Origin: a virus
Taxonomy: Duplodnaviria; Caudoviricetes
Virus record (IMG/VR): IMGVR_UViG_3300050190_000052
Coordinates: 1 to 58,285 of that record
DNA: 58,285 bases
Strand: one strand, 5' to 3'
The position numbers and the translations under genes were made by a program. The notes beneath the pieces are model-generated. The model had not been told where the DNA came from, made no database searches, and worked only from the letters and a program-made list of their open reading frames with translations. This document shows positions 3,936 through 53,847 of this stretch, piece by piece. Numbering within the stretch: the stretch's first letter is position 1; every line of letters starts with the position of its first letter.

Positions 3936-4127
3936 ATGGCAACGCAGCCGAAGAAGTGGATGGCCGGGGTCGTAAAGCATCCCGGCGCGCTTCATGCCGC
4001 CCTGGGCGTAAAACAAGGCCATAAAATTCCAGCCAAGAAGATGGCCGAGGCCCGGCATTCCAAGAGCCCGCGCGTCCGTAAAATGGCCGGTCTGGCCAAG
4101 GCATTTGCGCACGCCCATCATCCGTAA
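3936..4127 (+). CDS. small basic phage protein
   Basis: MATQPKKW...KHPGALHAALGVKQGHKIPAKK; GGAGG RBS; TAATG coupling to terminase. Confidence 0.65.
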   Translation: MATQPKKWMAGVVKHPGALHAALGVKQGHKIPAKKMAEARHSKSPRVRKMAGLAKAFAHAHHP

Positions 4128-5617
4128 TGGCGATCTACAACTGCTCCGACATGCCGACCATCGGAGCTTTTTTCGACTCGGACGCATTTATCAGGGGCCT
4201 ATCGGGGCCATTTGGCTCCGGGAAAAGTTCAGCGTGCGCGATCGAAATAGCCCAGAGGGGCGTAGCCGTTCCACGCGGGCCGGACGGTGTTCGGCGCAGT
4301 CGGTATGCTGTCGTGAGGTCGACCAGCAAGCAGCTGGAGGACACCACCGAGCGTACATGGCTGAGTTGGTTTCCACCCCACCAGTTCGGCGACTGGACAC
4401 CATCGAAGCACAATTACACGATCCGCAACCTGAAAGGGGAAGGTGACGACCGGGGCGCCGAGGTCGAAGTGCTCTTCCGCGCGCTGGACCGGCCCGACCA
4501 GATCCGCGATCTTCTGTCGCTCGATCTGACCGGCGCCTGGGTGAACGAAGGGCGCGAGACGCCCTGGCAAATCATCGACGCATTGCAGGGGCGCCTTGGC
4601 CGATATCCCCGCCGTCAGGACGTTCCGGTGTTCTGGTCCGGCTTGTGGATGGACACCAATCAGCCTGACGTTGACTCAGAATGGTTCAAGTTTTTCGAGG
4701 AGACCGACCATTCCGAGGCGGTCGCGAAGTTGGCCAAGGTTCCGGATTTCACGGGTCTGACCGTCGAGACGTACCGGGCGTTGTTCAAACAGCCATCCGG
4801 CCTGTCTGCCGCGGCGGAAAATCTTCGGAACCTGCCGCCCGGGTATTATGAACGTCTCGCCATTGGGAAGAGCCCGGAGTGGATCCGGATCTACATTCAC
4901 GGCGAATATGGCTTCGAGATGGACGGAAAGGCCGTCTGGCCGGAGTATTCGGATGATATTCATTGCCCGGAGAAGAAGGAAAATTGGCCAAAGCCGATCA
5001 GGAATCTGCCGATCGTCCGTGGCTGGGATAGCAGCGGCCTGACGCCGGCATGTGTGTTTACCCAGATCACGCCGCGCGGCCAGTGGATCGTTTTTGACGA
5101 GATCGTGGCTACTGAGATGGGCGCTACCACGATCGGTGAGGCGGTGCTCGACCATAGCGCGCGGTATTATCCGGGCTTCGAGTTCTGGGACGTTGGAGAT
5201 CCGGCGGGTATGTCGCGCTCGCCCACCGACATGCGGACCTATTTCGACGTGCTGCACGCGCTCGGCATTCCGATCGAACCGGCCATTCAGACCCTGGAGA
5301 TCAGGCTTGAGTCAGTTCGTAAGCCGCTCCGTATGCTGAAAGAGGGGCGCCCGCAATTCGTGCTGCACCCGCGCTGCAAGATTCTTCGGAGAGCCTTTCT
5401 CGGTGGATATCACTACAGAAAACTTCGAATTACCGGCGATCGGTTCACGACGGTCCCAGACAAGAATTCATTTTCTCATGTGGCGGACGCGCTGGGATAT
5501 GCCGCCACCCGGGTGTTCGGCTCCGGCATCCTGACTGGGCCGCAGTTTGATGCGGCACGGCAGAGAGATTACGAAGGAATATCAGCGGGCCGACGCTCGA
5601 CTGTCACGGGATATTAG
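4127..5617 (+). CDS. terL: terminase large subunit
   Basis: Walker A GPFGSGKSS, Walker B AWVNE, RNase H-like nuclease half (RGWD...GDPAG...SHVADALGY); upstream of portal. Confidence 0.92.
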   Translation: MAIYNCSDMPTIGAFFDSDAFIRGLSGPFGSGKSSACAIEIAQRGVAVPRGPDGVRRSRYAVVRSTSKQLEDTTERTWLSWFPPHQFGDWTPSKHNYTIRNLKGEGDDRGAEVEVLFRALDRPDQIRDLLSLDLTGAWVNEGRETPWQIIDALQGRLGRYPRRQDVPVFWSGLWMDTNQPDVDSEWFKFFEETDHSEAVAKLAKVPDFTGLTVETYRALFKQPSGLSAAAENLRNLPPGYYERLAIGKSPEWIRIYIHGEYGFEMDGKAVWPEYSDDIHCPEKKENWPKPIRNLPIVRGWDSSGLTPACVFTQITPRGQWIVFDEIVATEMGATTIGEAVLDHSARYYPGFEFWDVGDPAGMSRSPTDMRTYFDVLHALGIPIEPAIQTLEIRLESVRKPLRMLKEGRPQFVLHPRCKILRRAFLGGYHYRKLRITGDRFTTVPDKNSFSHVADALGYAATRVFGSGILTGPQFDAARQRDYEGISAGRRSTVTGY

Positions 5618-6693: not shown

Positions 6694-9600
6694 ATGAGTG
6701 CCACGCTCGCCCCACCGCCGCCGCCGAACGGCATATCCTCTATCGCGGCCCTCGCCGGCGGGACCGGTGCGTCCCCGCCCATCTCCTCTGAGCCTGATGA
6801 TCATCCCAATCCAGAGTTACGCGATCAACTGACGCGCTGGGTTGGCATGAAGAACATCGCGGCCGATCCCGACGACAATATGGAACCGAACCCGGAGATC
6901 GGTGACGATATCGCGCGCATCGCGGCCCGGGTGCGCTCTGACTATGACATCGACGAACTGAGCCGGGCCGACTGGCGCGAGAAATATCGCAAGTGGCTGG
7001 ACTGCGCTTTGCAGGTCACTGAGCACAAAACCTATCCATGGCCTGAGGCGTGCTTTTCACTCGATACCGATGTTCTGACCGATTCGGGTTGGAAGCCAGT
7101 CGCCGAGATCGCCATCGGTGAAAGGGTCCTCAGTCGCGCGCCATCCGGTGCCGCGGCATTCTATCCGGTGACCGAGCGCCATCGGTTCACGGCTCTGTCA
7201 ATGGTGCATTTCACCGGTAAGAGCATCGACCTGATGGTGACGCCGAACCACAGGATGTTGGTCGAGAGCAAGTTCGGCAAGCGGAAGAAGCAGCATTTCA
7301 TCGAGGCGGGGCGGTTCTTGGAGGAGCGTCTGGCATTTCGATACATCCCGCTTACGTCGCAGTGGACGGGCGACCCCCTGTCGGAGATCCATGGGGTAAG
7401 TGCGGAGGCGTACGCGCGATTCCTGGGTTGGTACATCTCCGAGGGCTCGGCCTTCACTGGACACAATACCCACACATTGAAGGATGGAACTTTCAGGGAT
7501 TATGGAAAGAGTCCGAGCAGCTTCGCTATCGCGCAGAGCCAGACCGCCAACCCCGTAAAGTTCGAACGCCTTCGGCACGACATCGAAGCCTGTAGGTTCA
7601 CCTGTAAAGCCACGCCCACCGGTTACATCGTTCATGCCAGGTCGATGCCCAATGCTGCGAAAGACGAACTTAGATCGCTTGGTTTATCACACCAGAAACA
7701 TGTGCCTGATTACCTGCTGACAGCGTCCGTTCCGGTACTCAAGGCCCTCCTTGATGGCCTGATGGCCGGTGATGGCTGCATTCGGGAACGCAATGGAAAG
7801 GAGGAAAGCTGGTCCTATTCTACTGTTTCCCGCCGGTTGTCCGACCAGATGCAGGACATATGTCAGAAGATTGGCTGGCGCGCGACCGTGGCGGAAAGAG
7901 CGGCGGTCGTCGGAGGGGTAATCAACGGGCGGCAAATCACCGGGGCTCAAACTTGCTACCTGATCGCGATCAACCGCAAGTCCCGTATCCAGGTCGTTAA
8001 AATGGACCGGCAAGCGGTCTTTGGACCATGCGAGGTCGCCTGCGTCACCGTCGAACCGCACCACACACTCTATGTGCGCCGCAACGGCAAAGCCCTCTGG
8101 TGCGGCAACTCCAATGTCATATATCCGCTGATGACGACGGCGGCCATCCAATTTGCCGCCCGCGCTTACCCGGCGATCATCCGAGATCGCAACGTCGTCA
8201 AGGGCACCGTCATTGGCGACGACAAAGGCGTGATCAATCCGGCGTTTGTGCATCTGCTACAAGCCGCGCACGCGCATGATCAGGCGATGGCGCAGCAGCA
8301 ACAGCAGGGAGGGCAGCCACCGCCGGGCGGCCCGCCTCCTGGCGCTCAACCCCCAGGCCCTGGTCCTATGCAGCAGTCAGGACCGGCCGCGTCGCCTCAG
8401 CCGGGTCCCGGAATGCCGCCGCCAGGACAGGCCGGCCCCGGTATGGGGCTCCCGGCGGGGATGCCGCGGCAGTGGCTGGAAGAGCCCGGGGCAAAGCAAA
8501 AGCGAGCGCTCCGCATCGGCCGGCACATGAGCTGGCAGCTTCTGTTCGAACAAGAGGAATGGGAACCGCAGACCGACACGCTTCTGGTGGCACTCCCGAT
8601 CGTCGGCACGTATTTCCGCAAGTCCTACTACGATCAAAGCCTCGGCCGGAACGTGAGCGAGACTGTCGACGCACTGGCGCTATGCGTGAATTATTACGCC
8701 AAGAGCTTTGAGACATCGCCTCGAAAAACAGAGTCGATCCGGATGTACCCGGACGAAATCGAGACAGCGATCCGCTCCGGTCTGTTCATTGATTGGGACG
8801 GTGACGGTGCGCTGGCCTATGGCCATGACAGCGGCGTCACCATGGAGGACGAGAAGCGGCGCGATCCCAATAGCCAGCAGGACGAGGACGCGGCGGTCAC
8901 CTTCCTGGAACAGCATCGGCGCTGGGATCTGGATGGCGATGGCTATCCCGAGCCGTACATCATCACCGTGGCGCGCGACAGCGGCAAACTCGCGCGCATC
9001 GTCGCCGGCTTCGAAATGGATGGGGTGCATTTCAACCGGAAGGGCCAGGTTCGGAAAATCGACGTCGTCGCTGTCTATACGAAATACGGGTTCATCCCGA
9101 ACCCCGACTCCAAGGTCTACGATCTTGGCTTCGGGCATCTCCTGTTTCCGATCAACGAAGCGGTGAACACCACCATAAATATGATGATCGACTCCGGGCA
9201 CCTTCAGATCGTCGGCGGCGGTTTCATCGGGTCCGGGCTGTCGATCAATACCGGCACGGTCCGGTTCACCCATGGCGAGTACAAGCCGGTCAACACGTTC
9301 GGCGGGAACATCCGCGACAACATTTACCAGATACCGTTCCCTGGCCCCAACCCGATCCTGATGCAGTTGCTGCAATTCCTGATCGAATCTGGCGAACGTG
9401 TCGCCTCCGTGAAGGACGTCATGGTCGGCGACATGCCGGGCGACAACACCTCAGGCATCACGACGCTGGCAGTGATCGAGCAGGGCCTGAAGGTGTTCTC
9501 CGCGATCTACAAGCGGATCCACCGCTCGCTCGGCTACGAGTTCAAAAAACAATACCAGCTGAACCGAAAGTATAGCCGTAAGGAATCGCAGTACCAGGAA

Positions 9601-10125
9601 GGCGGCGACTGGAAGACGATCACCAGGGAAGATTACGAAAAAGGCGCCGGCGTCGAGCCGATCAGTGATCCGCAGATGGTTACCGACATGCAACGCCTCG
9701 GCAGGGCACAGTTCCTGCTGACCTTCAAGGATGATCCTCGCGTCAAGGGGGAGAAAATCATTCTCGACGCGTTCACCGCGGCGATGATCCCGGACGCTGA
9801 AAGCTACATGACAGAGGCGCCGGCGCAGCCTGATCCAAAGATTCTGCTGAAAAGCCGCGAGCTGGATATCCGCGAGAAACGGGAGATGATCGAACTGATG
9901 TTGCGCCACGAACATGACAAGGCGCTGATCATCGGGGAGATATGCAAGGCCGAATTGGCGTTGGCTCAGGCGAGGAAGCTTGACAATGACGCGCAACTGG
10001 GGTGGGTGGAGCAACATATTGAACACCTGAAAGCACAGGTCGATGCCATTGCCACCCTATCGCCCCCGCCAGCCGGTCCCACCGCCGATGCCGGGGGAGG
10101 AGCGAGTCCCCCCGCTTCTCCGTGA
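6694..10125 (+). CDS. portal protein (P22-like) interrupted by an intein
   Basis: Follows terL; extein motifs KTYPWPEA/SNVIYPL...QFAARAYP, FIPNPDSKVYDLGFG, AIYKRIHRS; about 790 aa after splicing. Confidence 0.88.
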   Translation: MSATLAPPPPPNGISSIAALAGGTGASPPISSEPDDHPNPELRDQLTRWVGMKNIAADPDDNMEPNPEIGDDIARIAARVRSDYDIDELSRADWREKYRKWLDCALQVTEHKTYPWPEACFSLDTDVLTDSGWKPVAEIAIGERVLSRAPSGAAAFYPVTERHRFTALSMVHFTGKSIDLMVTPNHRMLVESKFGKRKKQHFIEAGRFLEERLAFRYIPLTSQWTGDPLSEIHGVSAEAYARFLGWYISEGSAFTGHNTHTLKDGTFRDYGKSPSSFAIAQSQTANPVKFERLRHDIEACRFTCKATPTGYIVHARSMPNAAKDELRSLGLSHQKHVPDYLLTASVPVLKALLDGLMAGDGCIRERNGKEESWSYSTVSRRLSDQMQDICQKIGWRATVAERAAVVGGVINGRQITGAQTCYLIAINRKSRIQVVKMDRQAVFGPCEVACVTVEPHHTLYVRRNGKALWCGNSNVIYPLMTTAAIQFAARAYPAIIRDRNVVKGTVIGDDKGVINPAFVHLLQAAHAHDQAMAQQQQQGGQPPPGGPPPGAQPPGPGPMQQSGPAASPQPGPGMPPPGQAGPGMGLPAGMPRQWLEEPGAKQKRALRIGRHMSWQLLFEQEEWEPQTDTLLVALPIVGTYFRKSYYDQSLGRNVSETVDALALCVNYYAKSFETSPRKTESIRMYPDEIETAIRSGLFIDWDGDGALAYGHDSGVTMEDEKRRDPNSQQDEDAAVTFLEQHRRWDLDGDGYPEPYIITVARDSGKLARIVAGFEMDGVHFNRKGQVRKIDVVAVYTKYGFIPNPDSKVYDLGFGHLLFPINEAVNTTINMMIDSGHLQIVGGGFIGSGLSINTGTVRFTHGEYKPVNTFGGNIRDNIYQIPFPGPNPILMQLLQFLIESGERVASVKDVMVGDMPGDNTSGITTLAVIEQGLKVFSAIYKRIHRSLGYEFKKQYQLNRKYSRKESQYQEGGDWKTITREDYEKGAGVEPISDPQMVTDMQRLGRAQFLLTFKDDPRVKGEKIILDAFTAAMIPDAESYMTEAPAQPDPKILLKSRELDIREKREMIELMLRHEHDKALIIGEICKAELALAQARKLDNDAQLGWVEQHIEHLKAQVDAIATLSPPPAGPTADAGGGASPPASP
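7051..8109 (+). mobile_element. intein with LAGLIDADG homing endonuclease (353 aa)
   Basis: Block A CFSLDTDVLTDSGWK, block B VTPNHRM, LAGLIDADG-like FLGWYISEG and LLDGLMAGDG, C-terminal HHTLYVRRNGKALWCGN followed by Ser+1. Confidence 0.93.
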
Positions 10126-35427: not shown

Positions 35428-36588
35428 CTATGCGGCAATCCGCTGGCTTGGCGCCTGAAGGCTAGTTCCTGGCCCGAAGTTCGCCCGCATGAGCACGATG
35501 CGCGCAGCCGCTACGTCGCGGTCGGCATGATACCCGCAGTCGCAGGTATGCCGCCGATCGGCGAGCGTCTTACGTCGGATCGTGCCGCATTCAGGACACG
35601 TCTGGCTTGTGCCGCGAGGACTGACCAGTTTGAGCACGCCACCAGCATTTTCGGCTTTGTAGGCGATCTTCTGGACGAGACTGTTCCACGCGGCGTTATG
35701 CACGGACTTGGCGAGCATTCCCGCCGCCAGTCCTTTGATGTTCAAGTCCTCCATTGCGAGGTGCGAGAAGCGGTCTACCAGCGACCGGGACAGCTTATGC
35801 GACGTATCCCGCCGTTGATTGGCCGTCTTGGCGCTATGTCGGGCAACCCGCAGCTTGGCCTTTGTGAGTCGCTTACTGCCACGCTTGCAGCGCGAGACGG
35901 CACGTTGCAGCCGGCGCAACCTCTTGGCGGCGGCTCGCGTATGCTGCGGTGTCGGCACGGTCTCGCCATTGGACAGCGCCACCAGAGACGTGAGGCCAAG
36001 GTCGATACCGACCGGGGTGAACGGCCGCTCTATCGGTTCGGCATCGGCCAGCGTGATCTGGAAATAAACATACCATTTACCGCACGAGCGGCTGATGATG
36101 GCCGCGCCAACCTTGGCCCCCGGTGGCAAGTCGCGGTGCCAGCGGACCTTGATTTCGCCCGGTATGCCGACCATGCCGAGGCGCTTGCTCTTGCGGATCG
36201 TCAGGCCATCACCGACCCGAAAGTCCGCACTGTCGAACATCGACTTGGCGCGGAACCGAGGGAGGCCAGCTTTTCCGCCCCTCTTGACCCGACCGAAGAA
36301 CGCCGAGAACGCCCTATCGAGACGGCGCAACACCTGCTGTTCGGCGGAGAAGCTGTATCCCGCCAAACGCTCATCCGCGACGCGGATGGCCTTCAATTCG
36401 GCGGCCTGATTGCCGTAACGCAGGTTGATCCCGCGACGCTGGTAGGCTTCAATCCGCTGTTGCAGACAGGCGTTGTACAGATCGCAGAACGCGCCGAGCA
36501 TGTCGGTCAATGCGGTTTCCTGCGCGCCCGTAGTGAACAGGCGAAACTTGAAGCTGCGGACCTGGGGCGTTACGATTTGGTCAGCCAT
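35428..36588 (-). CDS. tnpB: RNA-guided endonuclease TnpB
   Basis: SFKFRLF N-terminus; RuvC I GIDLG, RuvC II MEDL, zinc finger CPECG..CDCG, RuvC III DRDVAAA; ATG 36588 (track's 37065 start lies outside the IS). Confidence 0.95.
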   Translation of the reverse strand: MADQIVTPQVRSFKFRLFTTGAQETALTDMLGAFCDLYNACLQQRIEAYQRRGINLRYGNQAAELKAIRVADERLAGYSFSAEQQVLRRLDRAFSAFFGRVKRGGKAGLPRFRAKSMFDSADFRVGDGLTIRKSKRLGMVGIPGEIKVRWHRDLPPGAKVGAAIISRSCGKWYVYFQITLADAEPIERPFTPVGIDLGLTSLVALSNGETVPTPQHTRAAAKRLRRLQRAVSRCKRGSKRLTKAKLRVARHSAKTANQRRDTSHKLSRSLVDRFSHLAMEDLNIKGLAAGMLAKSVHNAAWNSLVQKIAYKAENAGGVLKLVSPRGTSQTCPECGTIRRKTLADRRHTCDCGYHADRDVAAARIVLMRANFGPGTSLQAPSQRIAA

Positions 36589-36652
36589 GTTGAGGTTCAA
36601 TCTCGACTGGTCAGAGGTGTCGTCAGTGTTTCCAGCACTGGCGGCATCTCGT

Positions 36653-36681
36653 CTTATACCCCAGTTCATTACCCAGTTCAA
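36653..36681 (-). promoter_or_regulatory. sigma70-like promoter for tnpB1
   Basis: TTGAAC-17 nt-TATAAG on - strand. Confidence 0.55.
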
Positions 36682-36759
36682 CGGCCGTGTGCCACGCTGT
36701 CGCGCGGCCCGGCTTTCCTCCGTCGCCTGAAGGCGACGGTTCACTGATGGAGGCGTGCC

Positions 36760-36933
36760 GTGCTTTTGGTAATTTTGGTGGTGATCTTGTTGTTCGGCGG
36801 ACTTGGCGGCGGTTATTGGGGCCAGTCGCGAGGCTACTACGGTGGCGGCGGCTTTGGCATCATCGGGCTCGTGGTGATCGTCCTGGTCATCGCGATGCTG
36901 TTTGGCGGGTTCGGACACGGCCTGAGATACTGA
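36760..36933 (+). CDS. DUF3309-like small Gly-rich membrane protein (57 aa)
   Basis: Read manually: GGAGG RBS, GTG start, MLLVILVVILLFGGLGGGYWGQSRGYYGGGGFGIIGLVVIVLVIAMLFGGFGHGLRY. Confidence 0.7.
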   Translation: MLLVILVVILLFGGLGGGYWGQSRGYYGGGGFGIIGLVVIVLVIAMLFGGFGHGLRY

Positions 36934-37028
36934 CGTTGCTGTGACCGACCACGCCACGCTCATCGACGCGCTGGTCATCGCAGTGGCGATCGTGAAGCTG
37001 CTGTGTCTCGTGGCAGAGGGGTGATTAG

Positions 37029-37793
37029 ATGACAACGCCGCGAAGATCATCCGAAGTGCTGCCAAACCCCGACCCGTCCCTGATTACCAACGCGGCGATC
37101 GATCGCGAGTCGCGGAGCCTTGAACAACGGGTCTTCGCTCGCATCGACGGCATAGAAAAAGCCATCGAGGTCCAGCACGCGGATATGGTTCGGGCTCCGA
37201 CTGAACTTGCCCGCGCGTTGCAGGCACAGCGGGATCTTTTCATATCGGATATGAAAACCTTCGGCGCCTCCATGGGGAGCCTGCAAAAAGAAGTCGATGG
37301 TATCACGAACTCGACGTTCATCACGGTCAGTAATCTGAAGGATCTTGTTTATAGCAAGATCGCCGAACTCTCTTCCGTAACGATAGAAAAGTTTGCCGGG
37401 GTTAACTCACAGTTTGAAGAGCGCGATACCCGGACCGACCAACGGGCCGGAGACACAAAACTTGCGGTAGATGCCGCGTTCGCCGCCGCCAAGGAGGCCA
37501 CTGCCAAAATCGAGGCTGGTTTCACCAAGCAAATCGAAAGCATGGCCGATCAGATCGGGACCATTGTGAAAAACGCTGATGACAAGGTTGGCGACCTGAA
37601 AGACCGGATCACCGCTATGGAAAGCCGCACCGCCGGGATGCAAAGCCAGACCACGGAGCGGCGGCTTGATGGCGGCGCAATGGTTGGCCTCATCGTCGCC
37701 GGTATGATGGCGATCTCCGTGACTATCAGCGTGCTCGGATATGCTGCGCTGCACACTGTCCCAACGGTCATTGTCGGTAAGCCAACACCATGA
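37029..37793 (+). CDS. coiled-coil protein with C-terminal TM helix (lysis-module associated)
   Basis: PNPDPSLIT..., KLAVDAAFAAAKEA..., hydrophobic C-terminus. Confidence 0.65.
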   Translation: MTTPRRSSEVLPNPDPSLITNAAIDRESRSLEQRVFARIDGIEKAIEVQHADMVRAPTELARALQAQRDLFISDMKTFGASMGSLQKEVDGITNSTFITVSNLKDLVYSKIAELSSVTIEKFAGVNSQFEERDTRTDQRAGDTKLAVDAAFAAAKEATAKIEAGFTKQIESMADQIGTIVKNADDKVGDLKDRITAMESRTAGMQSQTTERRLDGGAMVGLIVAGMMAISVTISVLGYAALHTVPTVIVGKPTP

Positions 37794-38011
37794 GCTACAT
37801 CGCCGGGATCGGCATCCATCCCGAGAGTGGACCCCCGACCGTCCGGGTGCAGGTCGGGCGGCGCACCATCCGTCTGCGGCTGATCGACTGCCCACAGCAT
37901 GTGCTCCGCGAGTTCACCACGCACCTTCGCGAGGTCGCATTCGAGGACGAGGACGCGCTGCCGGTGATCGTAACGCAGATTTCACAGAGATTCCCAAAAG
38001 CCGCACCGTGA
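37790..38011 (+). CDS. hypothetical protein
   Basis: 73-aa ORF with ATGA overlap. Confidence 0.5.
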   Translation: MSYIAGIGIHPESGPPTVRVQVGRRTIRLRLIDCPQHVLREFTTHLREVAFEDEDALPVIVTQISQRFPKAAP

Positions 38012-38089
38012 CAATCGCAGGGATATGCGATACGGTTTTGATGCCTGGGGCAAAAGCGTCGGGTTTTGGCCAAAAATTGGAGAATGACC

Positions 38090-38182
38090 ATGACAGCAAT
38101 CAAAGTGGGAGGCGGGTTCCGTCTCGGTGGCTTGTTCCGTCTCGGTGGCGGCTTCCGCCTCGGGGGCCTGTTCCGCATCTAA
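38090..38182 (+). CDS. 30-aa repeat peptide MTAIKV(GGxFRL)x4-like
   Basis: GGAG RBS; MTAIKVGGGFRLGGLFRLGGGFRLGGLFRI; 18-bp units vary largely at synonymous positions. Confidence 0.7.
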   Translation: MTAIKVGGGFRLGGLFRLGGGFRLGGLFRI

Positions 38183-38266
38183 CTGTCGCTTCCTCTCGGG
38201 TTTCTGATCGTTGACCTGCGGCCCTCTCAGAAAACGGGAGGGCCGTACGTTTGAAGGAGTGGCCGC

Positions 38267-39031
38267 ATGGCAGCGCCAGGCCCAGATATTCGCTTCTATA
38301 GGTTCTTCCCAGATGCGCCGGCCCCACGGCGAGCTGACAACAGCGGCGCGGGCACCATATCCACCCGGGCGTACCGCTACTGCGAGGCGCTTCGGTTGGC
38401 CTCAGGGTGGGGATATTGGCTATTCGCACCGCTCGCGTTCCAGGTGGTATGGGATGGCCATGAAATCGCCTGGCGCACGGCCGGGATGGAAGAGTGGGAG
38501 CCATTGCAGGACACCGCGATGTTCCCCGGGTTCCCGGAAGCGTGGGATGCGGCCCGGCCTCCCGGTCGAGAAAATGCACTACCGCCGGTTTTCCTGACAG
38601 CGTTCCCCGAGCCGGGCTTGATGCAAATCACGCTTGGCATAGTCCCCACCGTCAATCCCGGGTGGATGCTGCACCTGCGGCCAGTGCCCAATTTCCCCGC
38701 CCCGGCGCATGTCGCCATGTTCGAGGGGCTCGTCGACGGGGAGGCTTATCGATTCGGCCCGCTGTTTGCCAACATCCGCCTGACCGCGACGGACCGGCCT
38801 ATCACCTTCTTGGCTGATCGCCCGCTGATGCAGTTGACGCCGGTGCCGCGGTATCTACTGGACGATGATGCCAAGACAGGGCCGCAAGGCAAGGTAGTTC
38901 CGGTCACCGACCAGGCGGATTGGGGTGACGACCAGTGGTCCTGGTACCACCAGACCATCGTGGAACCAGCATCCAGGCCCGCGCGGATGCACGGCGAATA
39001 TGCCGTCCGGGCAAGAAAGGGGCCGCCATGA
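38267..39031 (+). CDS. DUF6065-like protein
   Basis: AYRYCEALRLASGWGYWLFAP...WDG...PGWMLHLRPVPN..FEGLVD...GPLFANIRLT..PLMQLTPVPR; AAGGAG RBS. Confidence 0.7.
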   Translation: MAAPGPDIRFYRFFPDAPAPRRADNSGAGTISTRAYRYCEALRLASGWGYWLFAPLAFQVVWDGHEIAWRTAGMEEWEPLQDTAMFPGFPEAWDAARPPGRENALPPVFLTAFPEPGLMQITLGIVPTVNPGWMLHLRPVPNFPAPAHVAMFEGLVDGEAYRFGPLFANIRLTATDRPITFLADRPLMQLTPVPRYLLDDDAKTGPQGKVVPVTDQADWGDDQWSWYHQTIVEPASRPARMHGEYAVRARKGPP

Positions 39032-39543
39032 CGCCGGATGATTTTCTCACGACCATCCTCGACCCAGGACTGGCCTGGTGTGCTGAGCTGGCAGGTTGGA
39101 ATGCCCTATCCGACGATCGGGCGCGCGTATTGCTTCTCGCCATCGCCGGGCAGGAAAGCGGATGGTCGGAACGTATCCAGGCTGGAAATGGGCCTGCGCA
39201 CGGCTTCTGGCAGTTTGAACGCGGCGGCGTCACGGATGTCCTGACCACTGCGACGACCTATAAAATGGCGATGGCGGCGTGCGCGGCCGCTCAGACGCCG
39301 GCCAATCCGCGCAAGGTGTGGCAGTTGATGGCGACCGTCGCCGGCGATCATCTGGCGGTCGCGTTGGCGCGTTTGCTGCTTTGGTCTGATCCGGCTCCGC
39401 TTCCTGCGGTGGGTTCCGAGCAGATGTCATGGAATTACTATGCCAACAACTGGCGGCCGGGTAAGCCTCGCCCGAACGATTGGCTTGGGATTTATCGGAC
39501 GGCGGTGGATACCGTGGGAAGCGGCAATGCCAAGACAAGCTGA
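39028..39543 (+). CDS. putative endolysin (lysozyme-like fold)
   Basis: LLLAIAGQES...GPAHGFWQFERGG...LARLLLWSDPAPLP...WRPGKP; ATGA overlap. Confidence 0.7.
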   Translation: MTPDDFLTTILDPGLAWCAELAGWNALSDDRARVLLLAIAGQESGWSERIQAGNGPAHGFWQFERGGVTDVLTTATTYKMAMAACAAAQTPANPRKVWQLMATVAGDHLAVALARLLLWSDPAPLPAVGSEQMSWNYYANNWRPGKPRPNDWLGIYRTAVDTVGSGNAKTS

Positions 39544-39763
39544 TGCCGACATCATCCCGTATGACGTCCAGGAGGTCGCCGAGAAGGCACTCGCCAGGAA
39601 GCGAACCGAAGTGCGGCTGTTGGAGATTGTCGTGGCATGCAACAACGTCATAAGGCAATACCAGGAAACTGGTATATCCGGAACGGTACCCGACATTGAG
39701 CATCATCAGATACGCGAAGAAGCCTTAACCAGACTCAGAGCAATGCAAGAATTGCCTAAGTAA
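39527..39763 (+). CDS. hypothetical protein
   Basis: 78 aa; its stop coincides with the right end of IS element 2. Confidence 0.5.
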   Translation: MPRQADADIIPYDVQEVAEKALARKRTEVRLLEIVVACNNVIRQYQETGISGTVPDIEHHQIREEALTRLRAMQELPK

Positions 39764-39807
39764 TGGACCGCCAGCTAAAGCAGGCGGCTTTGCAAGTGCC
39801 AGGTAGG

Positions 39808-40881
39808 CTACGCGGCCCTGCGTTCGGCGGCATTACGTTCGCCCAGCCGAGCGATGTTCCCGGCTGCTGTGGTGTCGGACGCGCCAGCATGCGCGCAACT
39901 GATGCACACGAAACGGTCTCGCGTTGGGCGGTTCTTCCGGTCGATACAGCCGCAGGCCGGACAGGTCTGGGATGTATATCTCGGATCGACCGCGATCAAC
40001 GGGACTCCAGCAAGTGCGGCTTTGTAGGTCAGAAACGATCGAAGTTGAGCGAACGACCAACTGGAATGCGCGCGGCGCTGTGGCTTACGAACCGTTATCC
40101 GATCGCGGATGCCTTTGAGATCTTCAACGGCGATACCGCGTCCGGTGTCTTTTGCCTTCCGCACGATGATCTTGCTGATACGATGGTTCACGTTCCGGGC
40201 GAACCCCGCTTCCTTGGCGCGACGGGCCTTAAGCAACCGCCTCGCCGATTTCGTTCCCTTCCGTTGGAGTTTGCGCCGAAGACGGGCGTGGCGCCGTCGC
40301 AGGCTGGCGTTGTGGGCACCACAGAACGTCTCGCCATCGCTGTCGGCCGCGATGTTTCGCAGCCCGAGATCGACGCCGAGGTATTCGGCCGGGTCTCCCA
40401 TCGGCACGTCGCCAACGTCGACGGTCACGTAGAGGAAGAACATGCCGTCGCGGTAGATCAGGTCCGCCTGCCCGCGCGCTCTCTCAAGCGTGGCGGTCTG
40501 GTACGCACCGCACACCCACGGCATGATTTGCCGGCCGTCGTTGGTCAGGATCGAGACCCGATCCGCGCCTTTCCACGACAGGATGCGTTGGTCATAGACG
40601 ATGGCGCCGTGCGGCCGGAACGTCGGCTGGATGTCCTTATCCCGCTTGTATGCCTCAACCACCTTGGCAATGGCGCGCACGGTCATCTGAGCGGCGAGGC
40701 CAAAGTCACGCCGGATGCCGTGGTAGGCGAGTTTCTGCAATTCGAACTTGTTCGCGCATCGGTTGGCGAACGCGACCTCTGCCAAAGCGTCACACGCCGC
40801 GTTGAAACGCTCCATCGTCCGCAGCATGGCATCGGCCTGCGCGGGCAGCGGCAAGAGCTTCAATTGCATGGTCAGGTGCAT
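39808..40881 (-). CDS. tnpB: RNA-guided endonuclease TnpB
   Basis: GVDLG, VEDL, TSQTCPACG...CISC, SDTTAAGNI: catalytic D-E-D present. Confidence 0.95.
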   Translation of the reverse strand: MHLTMQLKLLPLPAQADAMLRTMERFNAACDALAEVAFANRCANKFELQKLAYHGIRRDFGLAAQMTVRAIAKVVEAYKRDKDIQPTFRPHGAIVYDQRILSWKGADRVSILTNDGRQIMPWVCGAYQTATLERARGQADLIYRDGMFFLYVTVDVGDVPMGDPAEYLGVDLGLRNIAADSDGETFCGAHNASLRRRHARLRRKLQRKGTKSARRLLKARRAKEAGFARNVNHRISKIIVRKAKDTGRGIAVEDLKGIRDRITVRKPQRRAHSSWSFAQLRSFLTYKAALAGVPLIAVDPRYTSQTCPACGCIDRKNRPTRDRFVCISCAHAGASDTTAAGNIARLGERNAAERRAA

Positions 40882-50426: not shown

Positions 50427-50885
50427 ATGAATGATATCTTATACTACGAACTCACCAGTGGCCGCAGGCTGCGGCAAGACGACCTAACCCCTGAAAATCT
50501 TGCGCTCGTCCGGTTGGATTCTGGGAACAGTGGCTTCCTGAAAAATCTTATCAAATGCCTACAGGGAAACACTGAGCACCGGGCGGCGCTGATTGAGGAA
50601 GCGCAAGAGGTCATTGACATGGCCCTACGCCTTATCGACCAGACGATGGCGTGGATCGATTGGGAGACGGCTTCTCCCTCTGGCCATAGGCCACCTATCG
50701 ACATATTTGATCAGGACAGACGCCGGTTTCTCGGCGCCTATCGGGACTTTCTGTCTGAAGAAATCTTCTCAGATGGGTTGAAAGCGGAGACGATACGCTC
50801 CACGGAGAATGCTGTTCAGCAGATAGGATATTGCTGCGGACCCGCAAATAGTAAAATGGTACCGGAGGAGAACTCTAATGGCTGA
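50427..50885 (+). CDS. hypothetical protein (lower GC)
   Basis: AGGAGG RBS; coupled to dnaB. Confidence 0.55.
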   Translation: MNDILYYELTSGRRLRQDDLTPENLALVRLDSGNSGFLKNLIKCLQGNTEHRAALIEEAQEVIDMALRLIDQTMAWIDWETASPSGHRPPIDIFDQDRRRFLGAYRDFLSEEIFSDGLKAETIRSTENAVQQIGYCCGPANSKMVPEENSNG

Positions 50886-52404
50886 GCCGAGATCGCTATC
50901 ACAGGAGGCATTTAGAGCCCCACGCGACATATTCCCCGGCCTTAGTCTACGACACCCACCCCAAAATATCCAGGCCGAGCAAGGACTTCTTGGGGCTCTT
51001 CTCGCCAGCAATGCGGCCTATGCTAAAGTCGCGGACTTCCTTGAACCGAGGCACTTCGCTGATCCGCTTCACGGTCAAATTTACGGACGTATAGCTGAGC
51101 GCATTCTGGGCGGCCGAATAGCGAACGCCGTCGCGATGAAGCTGGATTTTGAGGTCGATCCATTTCCTGGTATGTTGATATCAGTTGACACCTATCTTGC
51201 TGATCTTCTCATCAGTAATCCAGGCATTATTGTCGTCAGCGAATACGGACGCGCGATCCTGGACGCGTGGCAACGCCGTCGCCTTGTCGAGATTGGCGAG
51301 GCCGTCGTCAACAATGCGTTCGGCGCCGATCCTGGTCTGGATGCTGATGGACAAATCCAGGCGGCCGAGCAATCGATCGCCTCCCTGCGGCAGGTAGGTC
51401 AGCGCGGGGACCGTATGTCCAGCGCGGGGAGTCTGGTGAGCGGAGCCATTGCCCAGGCCGAGGCTGTCTATCAGGGCGTTCCCTCCCGCCGGGTGATGAC
51501 AGGGATGCCCACCATCGACCAGGCCATACGATTACTACCCGGAACGCTAACGCTGCTGGCGGGGCCTCCAGGCTCCGGCAAGACGGCGCTCGCAACCCAG
51601 ATCGGGAAGTCAATCGCGAAGAGGCTTTATGCGGACCGGCCATCGTTTAACCAGCCGGGCGTAGCGATCTTTAGCCTGGAAATGTCAGGCGAAGAACTTG
51701 GCGAACGAATCTTGGCCCATGAGGCTGAAATCGCACTGGATCACCTCCAGGATGGCCGCCTCGACGACGCCACTGTAGAGAACCTGATGCGAGCCGAGAC
51801 CGCGCTGCGCCATGTGCCGCTACGAATATGGGATTGCACCGAGACGCCTCTGCGCATGATCCCGCGCAAGATCCGATTACATCTGTCGAATCGTCCGGAG
51901 TCGCTGGTGATAGTCGATCATCTGCACGTTGACGGCGCGGATGGCGATAAGGGGCGTCAGGGAGAAAATCCGAGCGTTAACCAACTCGCCGGCGCGTTCA
52001 AGACGCTTGCCCGTGCCATGGATATCCCGATTATCCTGTTGGCGCATATGAGCAGGCCGCCGAAGGGCGTCGAAGTACGGCGCCCGACGCTATTTGACGT
52101 AAAGTATGGCGGAGAGAGCGCGGCGGACATCGTGATGTTCCCCCACCGACCGATCATGTTCATGGACACAAAGCCTCCGGTGATGAAGGCCAAGGAAACA
52201 GACGATGAGTTCCGTGGCCCCAATGGCACATTCACGCGCTGGCACAACGCGCTTGAGGGGGCACGTGACCTCGCTGAGATTGTGGTGGTCAAGCAGCGAA
52301 GCGGGCGCCCGGGGGTCTATCGGATGCGATTCCATGGCAGTACCACATCGTTTTCCGAGTGGTCTACTGAACTCGATGTGGACGACCCGCAGTGGGAAGA
52401 GTAG
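50878..52404 (+). CDS. dnaB: replicative DNA helicase DnaB-like
   Basis: PPQNIQAEQGLLGALL N-domain, Walker A GPPGSGKT, IFSLEMS, VIVDHL, LLAHMSR, AEIVVVKQRSG. Confidence 0.92.
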   Translation: MAEPRSLSQEAFRAPRDIFPGLSLRHPPQNIQAEQGLLGALLASNAAYAKVADFLEPRHFADPLHGQIYGRIAERILGGRIANAVAMKLDFEVDPFPGMLISVDTYLADLLISNPGIIVVSEYGRAILDAWQRRRLVEIGEAVVNNAFGADPGLDADGQIQAAEQSIASLRQVGQRGDRMSSAGSLVSGAIAQAEAVYQGVPSRRVMTGMPTIDQAIRLLPGTLTLLAGPPGSGKTALATQIGKSIAKRLYADRPSFNQPGVAIFSLEMSGEELGERILAHEAEIALDHLQDGRLDDATVENLMRAETALRHVPLRIWDCTETPLRMIPRKIRLHLSNRPESLVIVDHLHVDGADGDKGRQGENPSVNQLAGAFKTLARAMDIPIILLAHMSRPPKGVEVRRPTLFDVKYGGESAADIVMFPHRPIMFMDTKPPVMKAKETDDEFRGPNGTFTRWHNALEGARDLAEIVVVKQRSGRPGVYRMRFHGSTTSFSEWSTELDVDDPQWEE

Positions 52405-52876: not shown

Positions 52877-53847
52877 GTTGGAAAGCAATGATTTGGACCC
52901 ATAAACTCAGGGTCCAACTATCTTCCGTTGAATATCGGACGCTGATGGTCCTCGCAGAACATGCCCACGAAGATGGAAGAGGGGCATATCCGGCGGTAAT
53001 GACGATCGCCGAACATGCTGAAATGAGCGTTCGTAGCGTACAGCGTTCACTGAGGGTCCTTGAAAATCGGGATGTGATATCTCTTCAGAACCCGGCGACA
53101 CACAGCAGATCCGCAGTCTGGCGATTAAATATGAGCCTGGATATTGTCGCGTCTGTCACCCCTCCTGCATTAGAACAGGGGTGCCAACTGGTCCATTTAG
53201 GGGTGCCAACTGGTCCATTTAGAGGTGCCAGCGTGGCATCCGAACCAAAGATAGAACCTAAGATAGAACCTAAGCAGCAAGATAGAATACCAAAAGCGGC
53301 TGCGAAGAGAACCCATATCGCGGTAGACTGGACCCCTGGGCCAGCAGATCGGGAGTATGCCGATAACCTTGGCATTCCAGAGTCTCAGGTCAGCGCTTTC
53401 GTCGATTACCATCTTGCGAACGGGACGCTCATGGCGTCCTGGCCTGCTGCCTGGAGGACCTGGTGCCGTAATTGTACGCGGTTCGGGACAGCGACCGGGA
53501 AGCCCAATAAGTCTCAGGAAGAGATTGCGTTCGACGGAAACGATGCGTGGGGAGCCGAGGCATGGGCCGCCTCACTGCCAGACGCAAAAACAGGCAAGCT
53601 ACAGGATGAAACCGAAGTGCTGACTCTGGGTGGCATCGCGGCAGCGTGGACGGCGCGAGACTGCTGTGAGGCGGCAGGGTTCCCCGCAAGCTGGCGCGGC
53701 GACCTGTCACCGGTAGCCCATTGGCTACGTGATCGCCTGGAGCCGGATGAGGTTATCGAGGCGATCCGGACGAGCACGAAGCCGAACAAGCCAGTGTTGA
53801 CATACTTCGATCGACGCGTCCGAGAGAAAGCGAGTGTGCGATTATGA
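52873..53847 (+). CDS. replication initiator (HTH N-terminus, DnaT-like domain)
   Basis: LMVLAEHA..DG.AYPAVMTIAEHAEMSVRSVQRSLRVLE; IAVDWTPG...FVDYH...WPAAWRTWCRN; internal iterons. Confidence 0.78.
   Translation: MSWKAMIWTHKLRVQLSSVEYRTLMVLAEHAHEDGRGAYPAVMTIAEHAEMSVRSVQRSLRVLENRDVISLQNPATHSRSAVWRLNMSLDIVASVTPPALEQGCQLVHLGVPTGPFRGASVASEPKIEPKIEPKQQDRIPKAAAKRTHIAVDWTPGPADREYADNLGIPESQVSAFVDYHLANGTLMASWPAAWRTWCRNCTRFGTATGKPNKSQEEIAFDGNDAWGAEAWAASLPDAKTGKLQDETEVLTLGGIAAAWTARDCCEAAGFPASWRGDLSPVAHWLRDRLEPDEVIEAIRTSTKPNKPVLTYFDRRVREKASVRL
53177..53274 (+). repeat. iteron-like repeats, probable replication origin inside the initiator gene
   Basis: AGGGGTGCCAACTGGTCCATTT twice (53177-53220) plus partial third, inverted TGGCATCC, then about 3 x 12-bp GAACC(A/T)AAGATA. 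Confidence 0.75.

Follow-up and report, generated by a model that had tools for sequence, protein, structure and literature searches.

What does an open reading frame (ORF) of only 30 codons do directly upstream of a gene for a DUF6065-like protein in a tailed phage, and is it a gene at all? The ORF lies at 38090-38182 of the 58,285-bp IMG/VR record IMGVR_UViG_3300050190_000052, a tailed phage with a 60% G+C genome rich in spurious ORFs; "the window" below means that whole stretch of DNA at its full length. A preliminary description of the window, made from its letters alone, had singled out this micro-ORF as an unannotated repeat peptide and had proposed that it forms a pair with the DUF6065-like gene, in the layout of RiPPs, peptides that are made on the ribosome and modified after translation. 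Comparison with related loci answers the second half of the question: the ORF is a genuine small gene. It belongs to an unannotated family of basic peptides rich in glycine, and at the loci examined the genes of this family stand just upstream of one clade of DUF6065-like proteins, as its dedicated partners, both in phages and in Acetobacteraceae genomes. For the first half, my preferred reading, with a probability of about 0.45, is that the peptide is a substrate or ligand of the DUF6065-like protein and that the two genes form a minimal cassette of RiPP-like layout.

The micro-ORF and its peptide family

The features of the pair are as follows.

38079-38083, + strand: Shine-Dalgarno-like GGAGA, with the ATG of the micro-ORF 7 nt downstream
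38090-38182, + strand: micro-ORF of 30 amino acids plus stop, encoding MTAIKVGGGFRLGGLFRLGGGFRLGGLFRI; a compact family member whose units overlap
38108-38179, + strand: four 18-nt (6-codon) units, GGxFR[LI], from unit alignment and Tandem Repeats Finder
38267-39031, + strand: DUF6065-like gene, 254 amino acids, with a modelled dUTPase/dCTP-deaminase-like fold (Pfam, AlphaFold2 (AF2), Foldseek, VIA-align)

The ORF, its ribosome-binding site and its four units had all been described beforehand and are confirmed here. The GGAG at 38079-38082 stands 7 nt from the ATG at 38090; a second in-frame ATG at 38084 is just 1 nt from it, and because of that short spacing a start at 38090 is the likelier. 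Tandem Repeats Finder reports 38116-38175 with a period of 18, 3.3 copies and a score of 78, the second highest of 33 rows in the record. When the four units are aligned, 12 of the 18 columns are invariant. The variable columns 3, 9 and 15 are third codon positions at which every change is synonymous; columns 7-8 alternate between Gly and Leu, with GGG/GGC and TTG/CTG synonymous inside each class, and column 16 carries a Leu/Ile change. These synonymous differences had been read as a sign of selection on the peptide, and in the family pN/pS (the ratio of nonsynonymous to synonymous differences per site) is 0.13-0.31, a value of purifying selection. Columns 3, 9 and 15 are also third positions in one reverse frame, so the internal repeat alone leaves the frame unfixed, and it is the family that fixes it. 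Taken alone, then, the ORF offers thin evidence for a gene (six variable columns), and its relatives, as compared at the sequence level, settle its status. A reverse-strand ORF of 127 amino acids overlying the repeat was considered and dropped, as was a read-through fusion of the micro-ORF with the DUF6065-like gene, which share a frame but have two stops between them.

I collected loci around DUF6065-like relatives, namely 17 viral loci, 80 of 133 genome loci (mostly from Acetobacteraceae and from Rhodopila metagenome-assembled genomes) and 80 of 173 metagenome loci. In the viral set, a small same-strand ORF with a common motif was present in 11 of the 13 loci that have upstream sequence. From these loci I wrote a strict pattern, [RKQ][ILVMF].[ILVMF][GN][GAD][GATS].R, and then applied it to the other sets, counting a locus when the motif fell on the same strand within the 500 nt upstream of the DUF6065-like gene. 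Out of sample, it was found at 67/79 of the loci usable from genomes and at 51/67 of those usable from metagenomes; for viral and genome loci together the figure is 74/91, and three of three additional viral loci carry the motif. Co-occurrence of GGxFR-type micro-ORFs with DUF6065 homologues had been set beforehand as the test of the idea, and over the pooled usable loci, which are related to each other and hence not independent trials, the strict pattern occurs at 122/153 and a broad pattern, admitting variants such as KQV[SR][LI]GG[AG][KR].P, at 130/153. In the 91 viral and genome loci, strict matches number 97 in 45,227 upstream residues, whereas the remaining frames and flanks of these loci, 1,112,743 residues in all, have 14; a control made up of phage loci and the phage record yields 4 in 422,816 residues. 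The carrier loci range in G+C from 0.39 to 0.76.

A search in the reverse direction agrees. A 20-position profile built from 39 motif instances (A7), run against all six frames of three whole genomes (17.3 Mb), gave nine matches at five places, each 80-220 nt upstream of an A2-type gene and on its strand. The other three of the eight A2-type genes in these genomes carry, in place of the canonical motif, a variant repeat, [GAS]K[VI]R[LMI]G[GA]FAPTL, in four to six or more tandem units of 17-18 residues. The variant precedes one paralogue per genome (L148, L131 and L133, all Acetobacteraceae), each genome having two or three enzyme paralogues. The motif was found at none of the five canonical DUF6065 loci whose flanks were scanned. 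Among 401 sampled Pseudomonadota genomes, a tally that takes in the unpublished genome G386 and on which nothing else here depends, strong A2-type matches occur in the centre genome alone, and weak partial ones (E 1e-11 to 1e-14) in 13 others. Relatives of a 57-residue family member number only 4 among 5.8 billion clusters. A scan of IMG/VR with a degenerate pattern for two GGxFR units was set aside: its four stretches all lie in long stop-free frames in unrelated context.

The family core can be written hydrophobic-[R/K]-hydrophobic-G-G-G-X-R-hydrophobic-P, usually preceded by D-[T/S]-G, or in consensus form (D-T-G)-R-I-R-L-G-G-G-[FWYMC]-R-L-P, and it occurs in 1 to 6 or more tandem copies. 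One, two, three, four and five core copies are found at 84, 22, 12, 2 and 2 of the 122 loci. ORF length runs from 18 to 95 codons (median 40), and the peptides have a variable N-terminus and a conserved C-terminal core. A single core residue is hypervariable (F, W, M, Y, C, A and others), and it is the same in every copy of all 38 multi-copy peptides. Reading the peptide sequences revealed no evident signal sequence, hydrophobic N-terminal segment or transmembrane stretch.

Several measures indicate, at the level of sequence, that the family peptides are translated and under purifying selection. Among 196 distinct motif instances, residues that the search pattern does not specify recur as D in 151, G in 159, L in 162 and P in 165, and the third positions of these conserved codons have an entropy of 1.24-1.52. 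Across the motif the third codon position has an entropy of 1.49, against 0.90 and 0.89 at the first two. For the 17 codons as a whole, pN/pS comes to 0.31 (83 disjoint sequence pairs); it is 0.43 at the codons that the pattern leaves free and 0.13 at the conserved D, G, L and P codons among these. Furthermore, a 4-mer resembling a Shine-Dalgarno (SD) site lies at -16 to -5 in 84 of 109 distinct predicted starts, compared with 129 of 677 (19%) other ATGs in the same regions. An amino-acid-sensing attenuator was rejected as an explanation, since residue order and not composition alone is conserved.

How does the window peptide fit into this family? Its first unit, AIKVGGGFRL, agrees with the core R-I-R-L-G-G-G-W-R-L at 8 of 10 positions, conservative changes counted. 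Each later unit starts with the F-R-L of the preceding one and the Pro/Ala spacers are missing; as each F-R-L doubles as the start of the next unit, the peptide is a compacted form. Against the whole 58-kb record, profile A7 has just two matches, both in the micro-ORF and in the same frame, and because they are weak I file the peptide as a divergent member. The closest retrievable relative of its enzyme-like neighbour (locus L027, 51-52% identical, G+C 0.39) has an upstream peptide of four 11-residue units, one of which holds KVGGGFR, a 7-mer identical to that of the window peptide. In the window the ORF ends 84 nt before the DUF6065-like gene, on the same strand.

That the peptide was unannotated also holds for its relatives. 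Pfam, NCBIfam, PHROGs and PADLOC have no model that matches the peptides, an Atlas search with a family peptide gave a best score of 0.80, which is noise level, and, where family peptides are annotated at all, the source records call them 'hypothetical protein'. The window peptide is absent from a collection of 15 billion proteins. Neither DUF6065 nor the motif strings had a relevant mention in the searched literature, supplementary files not covered. In one metatranscriptome run, RNA contigs reach over 38168-38959 and some further stretches of the region and never span the repeat; strand and level cannot be read from them.

The DUF6065-like protein and the hairpin before its gene

The partner protein matches the Pfam DUF6065 profile (PF19541) with 29.5 bits, above the gathering threshold of 26.6, at profile positions 85-166 of 236 only; 43 of 44 relatives also match. 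Canonical members from those genomes that were searched reach 284-323 bits across positions 1-236 and stand without an upstream motif peptide; the window protein, which like them clears the threshold, is a divergent sister of canonical DUF6065. Relatives are numerous (454 cluster representatives at E<=1e-3 among 1.84 billion), and six alignment columns are invariant in 44 sequences. The closest of them is P0022, with an identity of 63% by phmmer and 61-62% in the alignments. NCBIfam and PADLOC gave no match to the protein, DUF6065 being its only Pfam match; nothing came of a tblastn search with it in 50,697 phage records, of scans with one protein over contigs from genomes and viruses, or of a search for longer, fused forms.

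An AF2 model from the 44 sequences, with a predicted local distance difference test (pLDDT) score of 94.4, indicates a dUTPase/dCTP-deaminase-like fold. Foldseek places dUTPases at the top (E 2.9e-4, template modelling (TM) score by target 0.57-0.71). An exhaustive VIA-align search gives Z 12.1 to dUTPases, over 121 residues at a root-mean-square deviation of 4.4 or 116 at 2.4; its top 22 rows all belong to the dUTPase/dCTP deaminase superfamily, and the next row has Z 5.0. An Atlas structure search returned a DUF6065 cluster at TM 0.85. At the sequence level the similarity to dUTPases is not significant. A weak hhalign alignment to five dUTPases from the same genomes nevertheless puts motifs II, III and IV in register and in order (R..N against RPRSG, EGIVETD.W.G against PGTID.DYRGE, and PLxQ against RIAQ), leaves motif I unaligned and ends before the glycine-rich motif V. 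The window protein also differs from dUTPases in about 75 residues of insertions and, in the AF2 model, a helical C-terminus.

DUF6065 domains occur elsewhere in fusions: in some canonical members with a 2OG-Fe(II) oxygenase or with JmjC/cupin domains and, in a relative of the window clade, with the HD-like DUF6817. The oxygenase fusion, a canonical DUF6065 (175 bits, positions 1-194) in a protein of 435 amino acids, was seen in one Acetobacteraceae genome (locus L126, 2338-3645, - strand). A second DUF6065 gene follows it (1456-2307, - strand). Upstream there is a Hint-domain-like ORF and no motif peptide.

Between the two genes of the pair a stem-loop is found, as had been described, though not at 38193-38241 where it had been placed.

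38217-38247, + strand: G+C-rich hairpin of 12 pairs (38217-38228 with 38236-38247), the strongest stem between the peptide and enzyme genes
38185-38263, + strand: outer helix (38185-38192 with 38256-38263), predicted from the minimum free energy (MFE) structure

The predicted outer helix would cover part of the SD of the DUF6065-like gene, GAAGGAG at 38253-38259. The 96-nt fold has an MFE of -36.6 kcal/mol (z -1.89), and 7 of 200 shuffles are equally stable; no T-run follows the stem, and a terminator scan does not call it. In the family the signal is general: compared with dinucleotide shuffles the gaps have a mean z of -2.36, with z below -2 in 62 of the 111 distinct gaps. Hairpins with 9 or more pairs are present in 95 of the 111, starting at a median of 17 nt past the stop (interquartile range 8-20), and 22 of the 95 have a T-rich tail. 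Rfam had no match over 36500-40000, and a sigma-70 promoter scan found nothing.

Readings of the pair

On the substrate-or-ligand reading, precursor gene, hairpin and single enzyme gene would make up a minimal cassette; the hairpin may leave peptide message in surplus over that of the enzyme, and every repeat unit would be one site of action. The evidence establishes the gene, its pairing, its selection, the hairpin and the fold, which recur as one conserved unit; a binding or catalytic role of the protein towards the peptide, like any chemistry, is my inference. The minimal-cassette reading fits because the precursors are multi-copy and no other gene is conserved.

The layout resembles known precursor-enzyme pairs. 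Among RiPPs there are two-gene clusters and precursors with tandem core cassettes, and the pair shares with them a short precursor-type ORF conserved beside one enzyme-like gene (a likeness of adjacency only), tandem units with conserved flanks and a variable copy number. The RiPP layout that had been proposed thus holds as far as short ORF, hairpin and enzyme-like gene recur together with varying numbers of copies. It does not hold in that the protein belongs to no known RiPP tailoring family, its fold not being known from RiPP biosynthesis, and the pair has no conserved protease, exporter or immunity gene nearby.

Microcin C offers a second comparison, MccB being an adenylating enzyme of a different fold. 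As one study reports, an intergenic terminator sets the ratio of MccA to MccB, that is, of substrate to enzyme (PMC4231749). The likeness is a tiny ORF followed by an intergenic hairpin or terminator and then by a nucleotide-using enzyme (PMC4231749). However, MccA is a single 7-residue peptide with no repeat, and the microcin C operon has export and immunity genes.

Several points weigh against a substrate or ligand. No third gene is common to the window, L027, L041/L042 and the Acetobacteraceae loci, neither a protease nor an exporter nor an immunity gene, and no conserved RiPP recognition element lies beside the pair in the loci compared. The core is nearly invariant, not hypervariable as a whole, and comparison of its one variable residue with the enzyme columns gave clade-like signals only, no column separating F, W and Y. 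I know of no dUTPase-fold protein that acts on a peptide, and a search for literature joining dUTPase-like with RiPP terms found none. The kinship with dUTPases is itself weak by hhalign (E 0.047, probability 1.1%). No peptide-protein binding could be predicted, though I give the interaction scores (ipSAE 0.01 and 0.00) for three DUF6065-like copies with the window peptide no weight either way. One Acetobacteraceae-type clade dominates the sample, and single linkage at 70% identity reduces it to 11 clusters, 6 with the strict and 8 with the broad motif. Finally, the window peptide lacks both the D-[T/S]-G prefix and the Pro after the core, and its A7 matches have E values of 0.14 and 0.53 and span profile positions 9/10-16 only.

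One protein bears on several readings. P0027 (313 amino acids, on a single 3488-nt contig) has a motif-like segment, ...DVGRIRFGAA..., joined in frame through a Pro-rich linker to a DUF6065-like N-terminus. It could be a natural fusion or the product of a lost stop codon. In its AF2 model the N-terminal motif segment has a pLDDT of 46-59, hence no docking can be read from it.

A bolder form of the substrate idea is a new peptide chemistry of phages and prophages, in which a dUTPase-fold enzyme would act on a dedicated multi-copy Arg/Gly peptide, perhaps attaching a nucleotide or cleaving the repeat into its units, and a peptide or peptide-nucleotide product would serve in phage-host or phage-phage conflict. 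The relatives of such an enzyme use water to attack the alpha-phosphate of a nucleotide. I hold this specific chemistry to be unlikely.

Could the micro-ORF instead be a cis-acting leader? Translation of such an upstream ORF, perhaps with ribosome pausing that depends on its sequence, would control the hairpin or a sequestered SD and so the expression of the enzyme, and the released peptide would have no function. Leader and arrest peptides are a class of small upstream ORFs with a conserved C-terminal motif and structured RNA just downstream, and the family shares these traits: the motif of single-copy peptides is near the C-terminus, the hairpins begin close behind the stop, and in the window the predicted outer helix starts 3 nt past it and pairs with part of the downstream SD. 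The microcin C intergenic terminator is reported to be under ribosome-dependent control (PMC4231749). Unlike leader peptides, however, the family has its motif in up to 6 or more copies, 2-6 tandem ones in 38 of 122 loci and others in the variant repeats, and early copies would stall ribosomes far from the hairpin. The distance to the gene is variable, some gaps reaching 200-390 nt. The conservation of residue order goes beyond composition, and P0027, on its single contig, joins motif and enzyme in one frame. On balance a leader seems improbable.

In a third reading the peptide would bind the dUTPase-fold protein non-covalently, as its partner or regulator, for instance by supplying or mimicking motif V, the aromatic, glycine-rich arm with which dUTPases close their active sites, with several copies for the several sites of an oligomer. 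The dUTPases of the same genomes end in R-[GN]-x-G-G-[FY]-G-S-T-G, the peptide core R-x-G-G-G-[FWY] has the same spacing from R to the aromatic residue, and, as noted above, the hhalign register stops ahead of motif V. Supporting this, motif V is described in another study as acting on the site of the neighbouring subunit, its loss nearly inactivating the enzyme (PMC5519681), and the P0027 fusion points the same way. Yet the DUF6065-like protein keeps a conserved C-terminal R-x-x-G-x-Y-A of its own (R240, G243, Y245), a possible cis counterpart; many peptides have M, C, A or L in place of the aromatic residue, the R-to-F spacing differs in the variant repeat, and the likeness is a short pattern noticed post hoc. 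I regard this partner role as quite unlikely.

An independent effector is more doubtful still. Here the peptide would be a cationic amphipathic agent active on membranes or nucleic acids, in lysis or competition, or a released signal, and the DUF6065-like protein an immunity or accessory factor. The window peptide does have a net charge of +5, with hydrophobic/Arg triplets alternating between Gly turns, and it lies in the lysis region, between a holin-like ORF (36760-36933) and an endolysin-like gene (39028). Many loci also adjoin prophage or terminase genes: a relative of the large terminase (TerL) lies within the fetched flanks of 13/17 viral, 23/80 genome and 15/80 metagenome loci. However, none of 21 phage loci with a related endolysin carries the peptide or the DUF6065-like gene, and elsewhere the pair lies outside lysis cassettes. 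The peptides have no visible signal peptide or transmembrane stretch, and no receptor- or exporter-type neighbour is conserved. Arbitrium-like signalling uses a secreted peptide with a signal sequence and a cognate receptor-type regulator; the family peptides differ in having no hydrophobic N-terminal segment, and their partner is an enzyme-like beta-barrel.

To the last alternative, a chance ORF on a tandem repeat of the DNA itself (one for protein binding or slippage, for example), I give almost no credence: the ORF has only 30 codons in a G+C-rich genome with many spurious ORFs, its product is missing from the protein collection and the repeat is unspanned by RNA contigs (which is uninformative), but protein-level conservation with synonymous drift over G+C 39-76%, the SD sites, and the fixed position and strand in the family all speak for a gene.

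Neighbourhood of the pair and what it means

The phage record also contains head-closure and tail-fibre genes and the following.

4127-5617: large terminase
6694-10125: portal
39028-39543, + strand: endolysin-like gene (phrog_3108; sub-threshold SLT match), a neighbour outside the conserved pair
50878-52404: DnaB-like helicase

The DUF6065-like gene had been described as coupled to the endolysin. The ATGA overlap is there, the TGA of the one sharing bases with the ATG of the other at 39028, but the coupling is not general, as the 0/21 related endolysin loci show, and is peculiar to the window phage. There the cassette is an accessory insertion beside the endolysin gene, and the pair does not as such belong to the lysis cassette. 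In Acetobacteraceae loci the pair often stands between a Cons_hypoth698 membrane protein and a receiver-domain gene with a large terminase.

The ORF at 36760-36933 (+ strand) has 57 amino acids with two hydrophobic stretches around a Gly-rich linker and is likely a holin-type gene. About 2 kb separate it from the endolysin-like gene, and that stretch includes the pair. It resembles a Gly-rich ORF of 53 amino acids with two transmembrane stretches that directly precedes the related endolysin at L002 (3823-3984), the closest of the related-endolysin loci. TnpB genes of IS200/IS605 type (OrfB_IS605 plus a Cas12f1-like TNB domain) flank the pair region at 35428-36747 and 39808-40881, both on the - strand; the former has the tail-fibre gene on one side and the holin-like ORF on the other.

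A gene at 37029-37793 (+ strand), which precedes a 73-amino-acid gene and the pair, encodes a protein of 254 amino acids with a hydrophobic C-terminal stretch. Its matches are weak, sub-threshold and of coiled-coil type only (Sec3_CC, a tape-measure phrog, ZorA/Leo), and it has 14 sequence variants in one 90% cluster, on many contigs. An A>G variant occurs at 37314. At 37789/37790 a 1727-nt contig from DNA run X16 matches both sides of the junction at its two ends, and the main contigs break there, which suggests an insertion polymorphism, perhaps an insertion sequence, between the genes for 254 and 73 amino acids. Just downstream of the helicase gene are tandem repeats at 53177-53230 (22 bp x2.5, score 101, the highest in the record) and 53242-53274 (12 bp x2.8); the repeats of 53177-53274 may represent iterons or an origin. 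In peat metagenomes the phage is common, with at least 98% of its sampled words present in 16 DNA runs from 13 studies, some of which are possibly the source of the record.

What the locus means can be said at two levels. A 30-codon ORF skipped by gene callers is what shows of a large family without annotation, whose members pair one-to-one with a protein family annotated without a function. The DUF6065-like proteins thereby gain a first functional handle, namely a peptide of defined sequence as candidate substrate or partner, together with a dUTPase-like fold suggestive of nucleotides. Should the protein indeed modify the peptide, the pair would bring a further enzyme fold into the biosynthesis of ribosomal peptides and would be a new sort of accessory cassette in phages. 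As a leader, the peptide would instead be a widespread regulatory peptide with an unusually conserved sequence.

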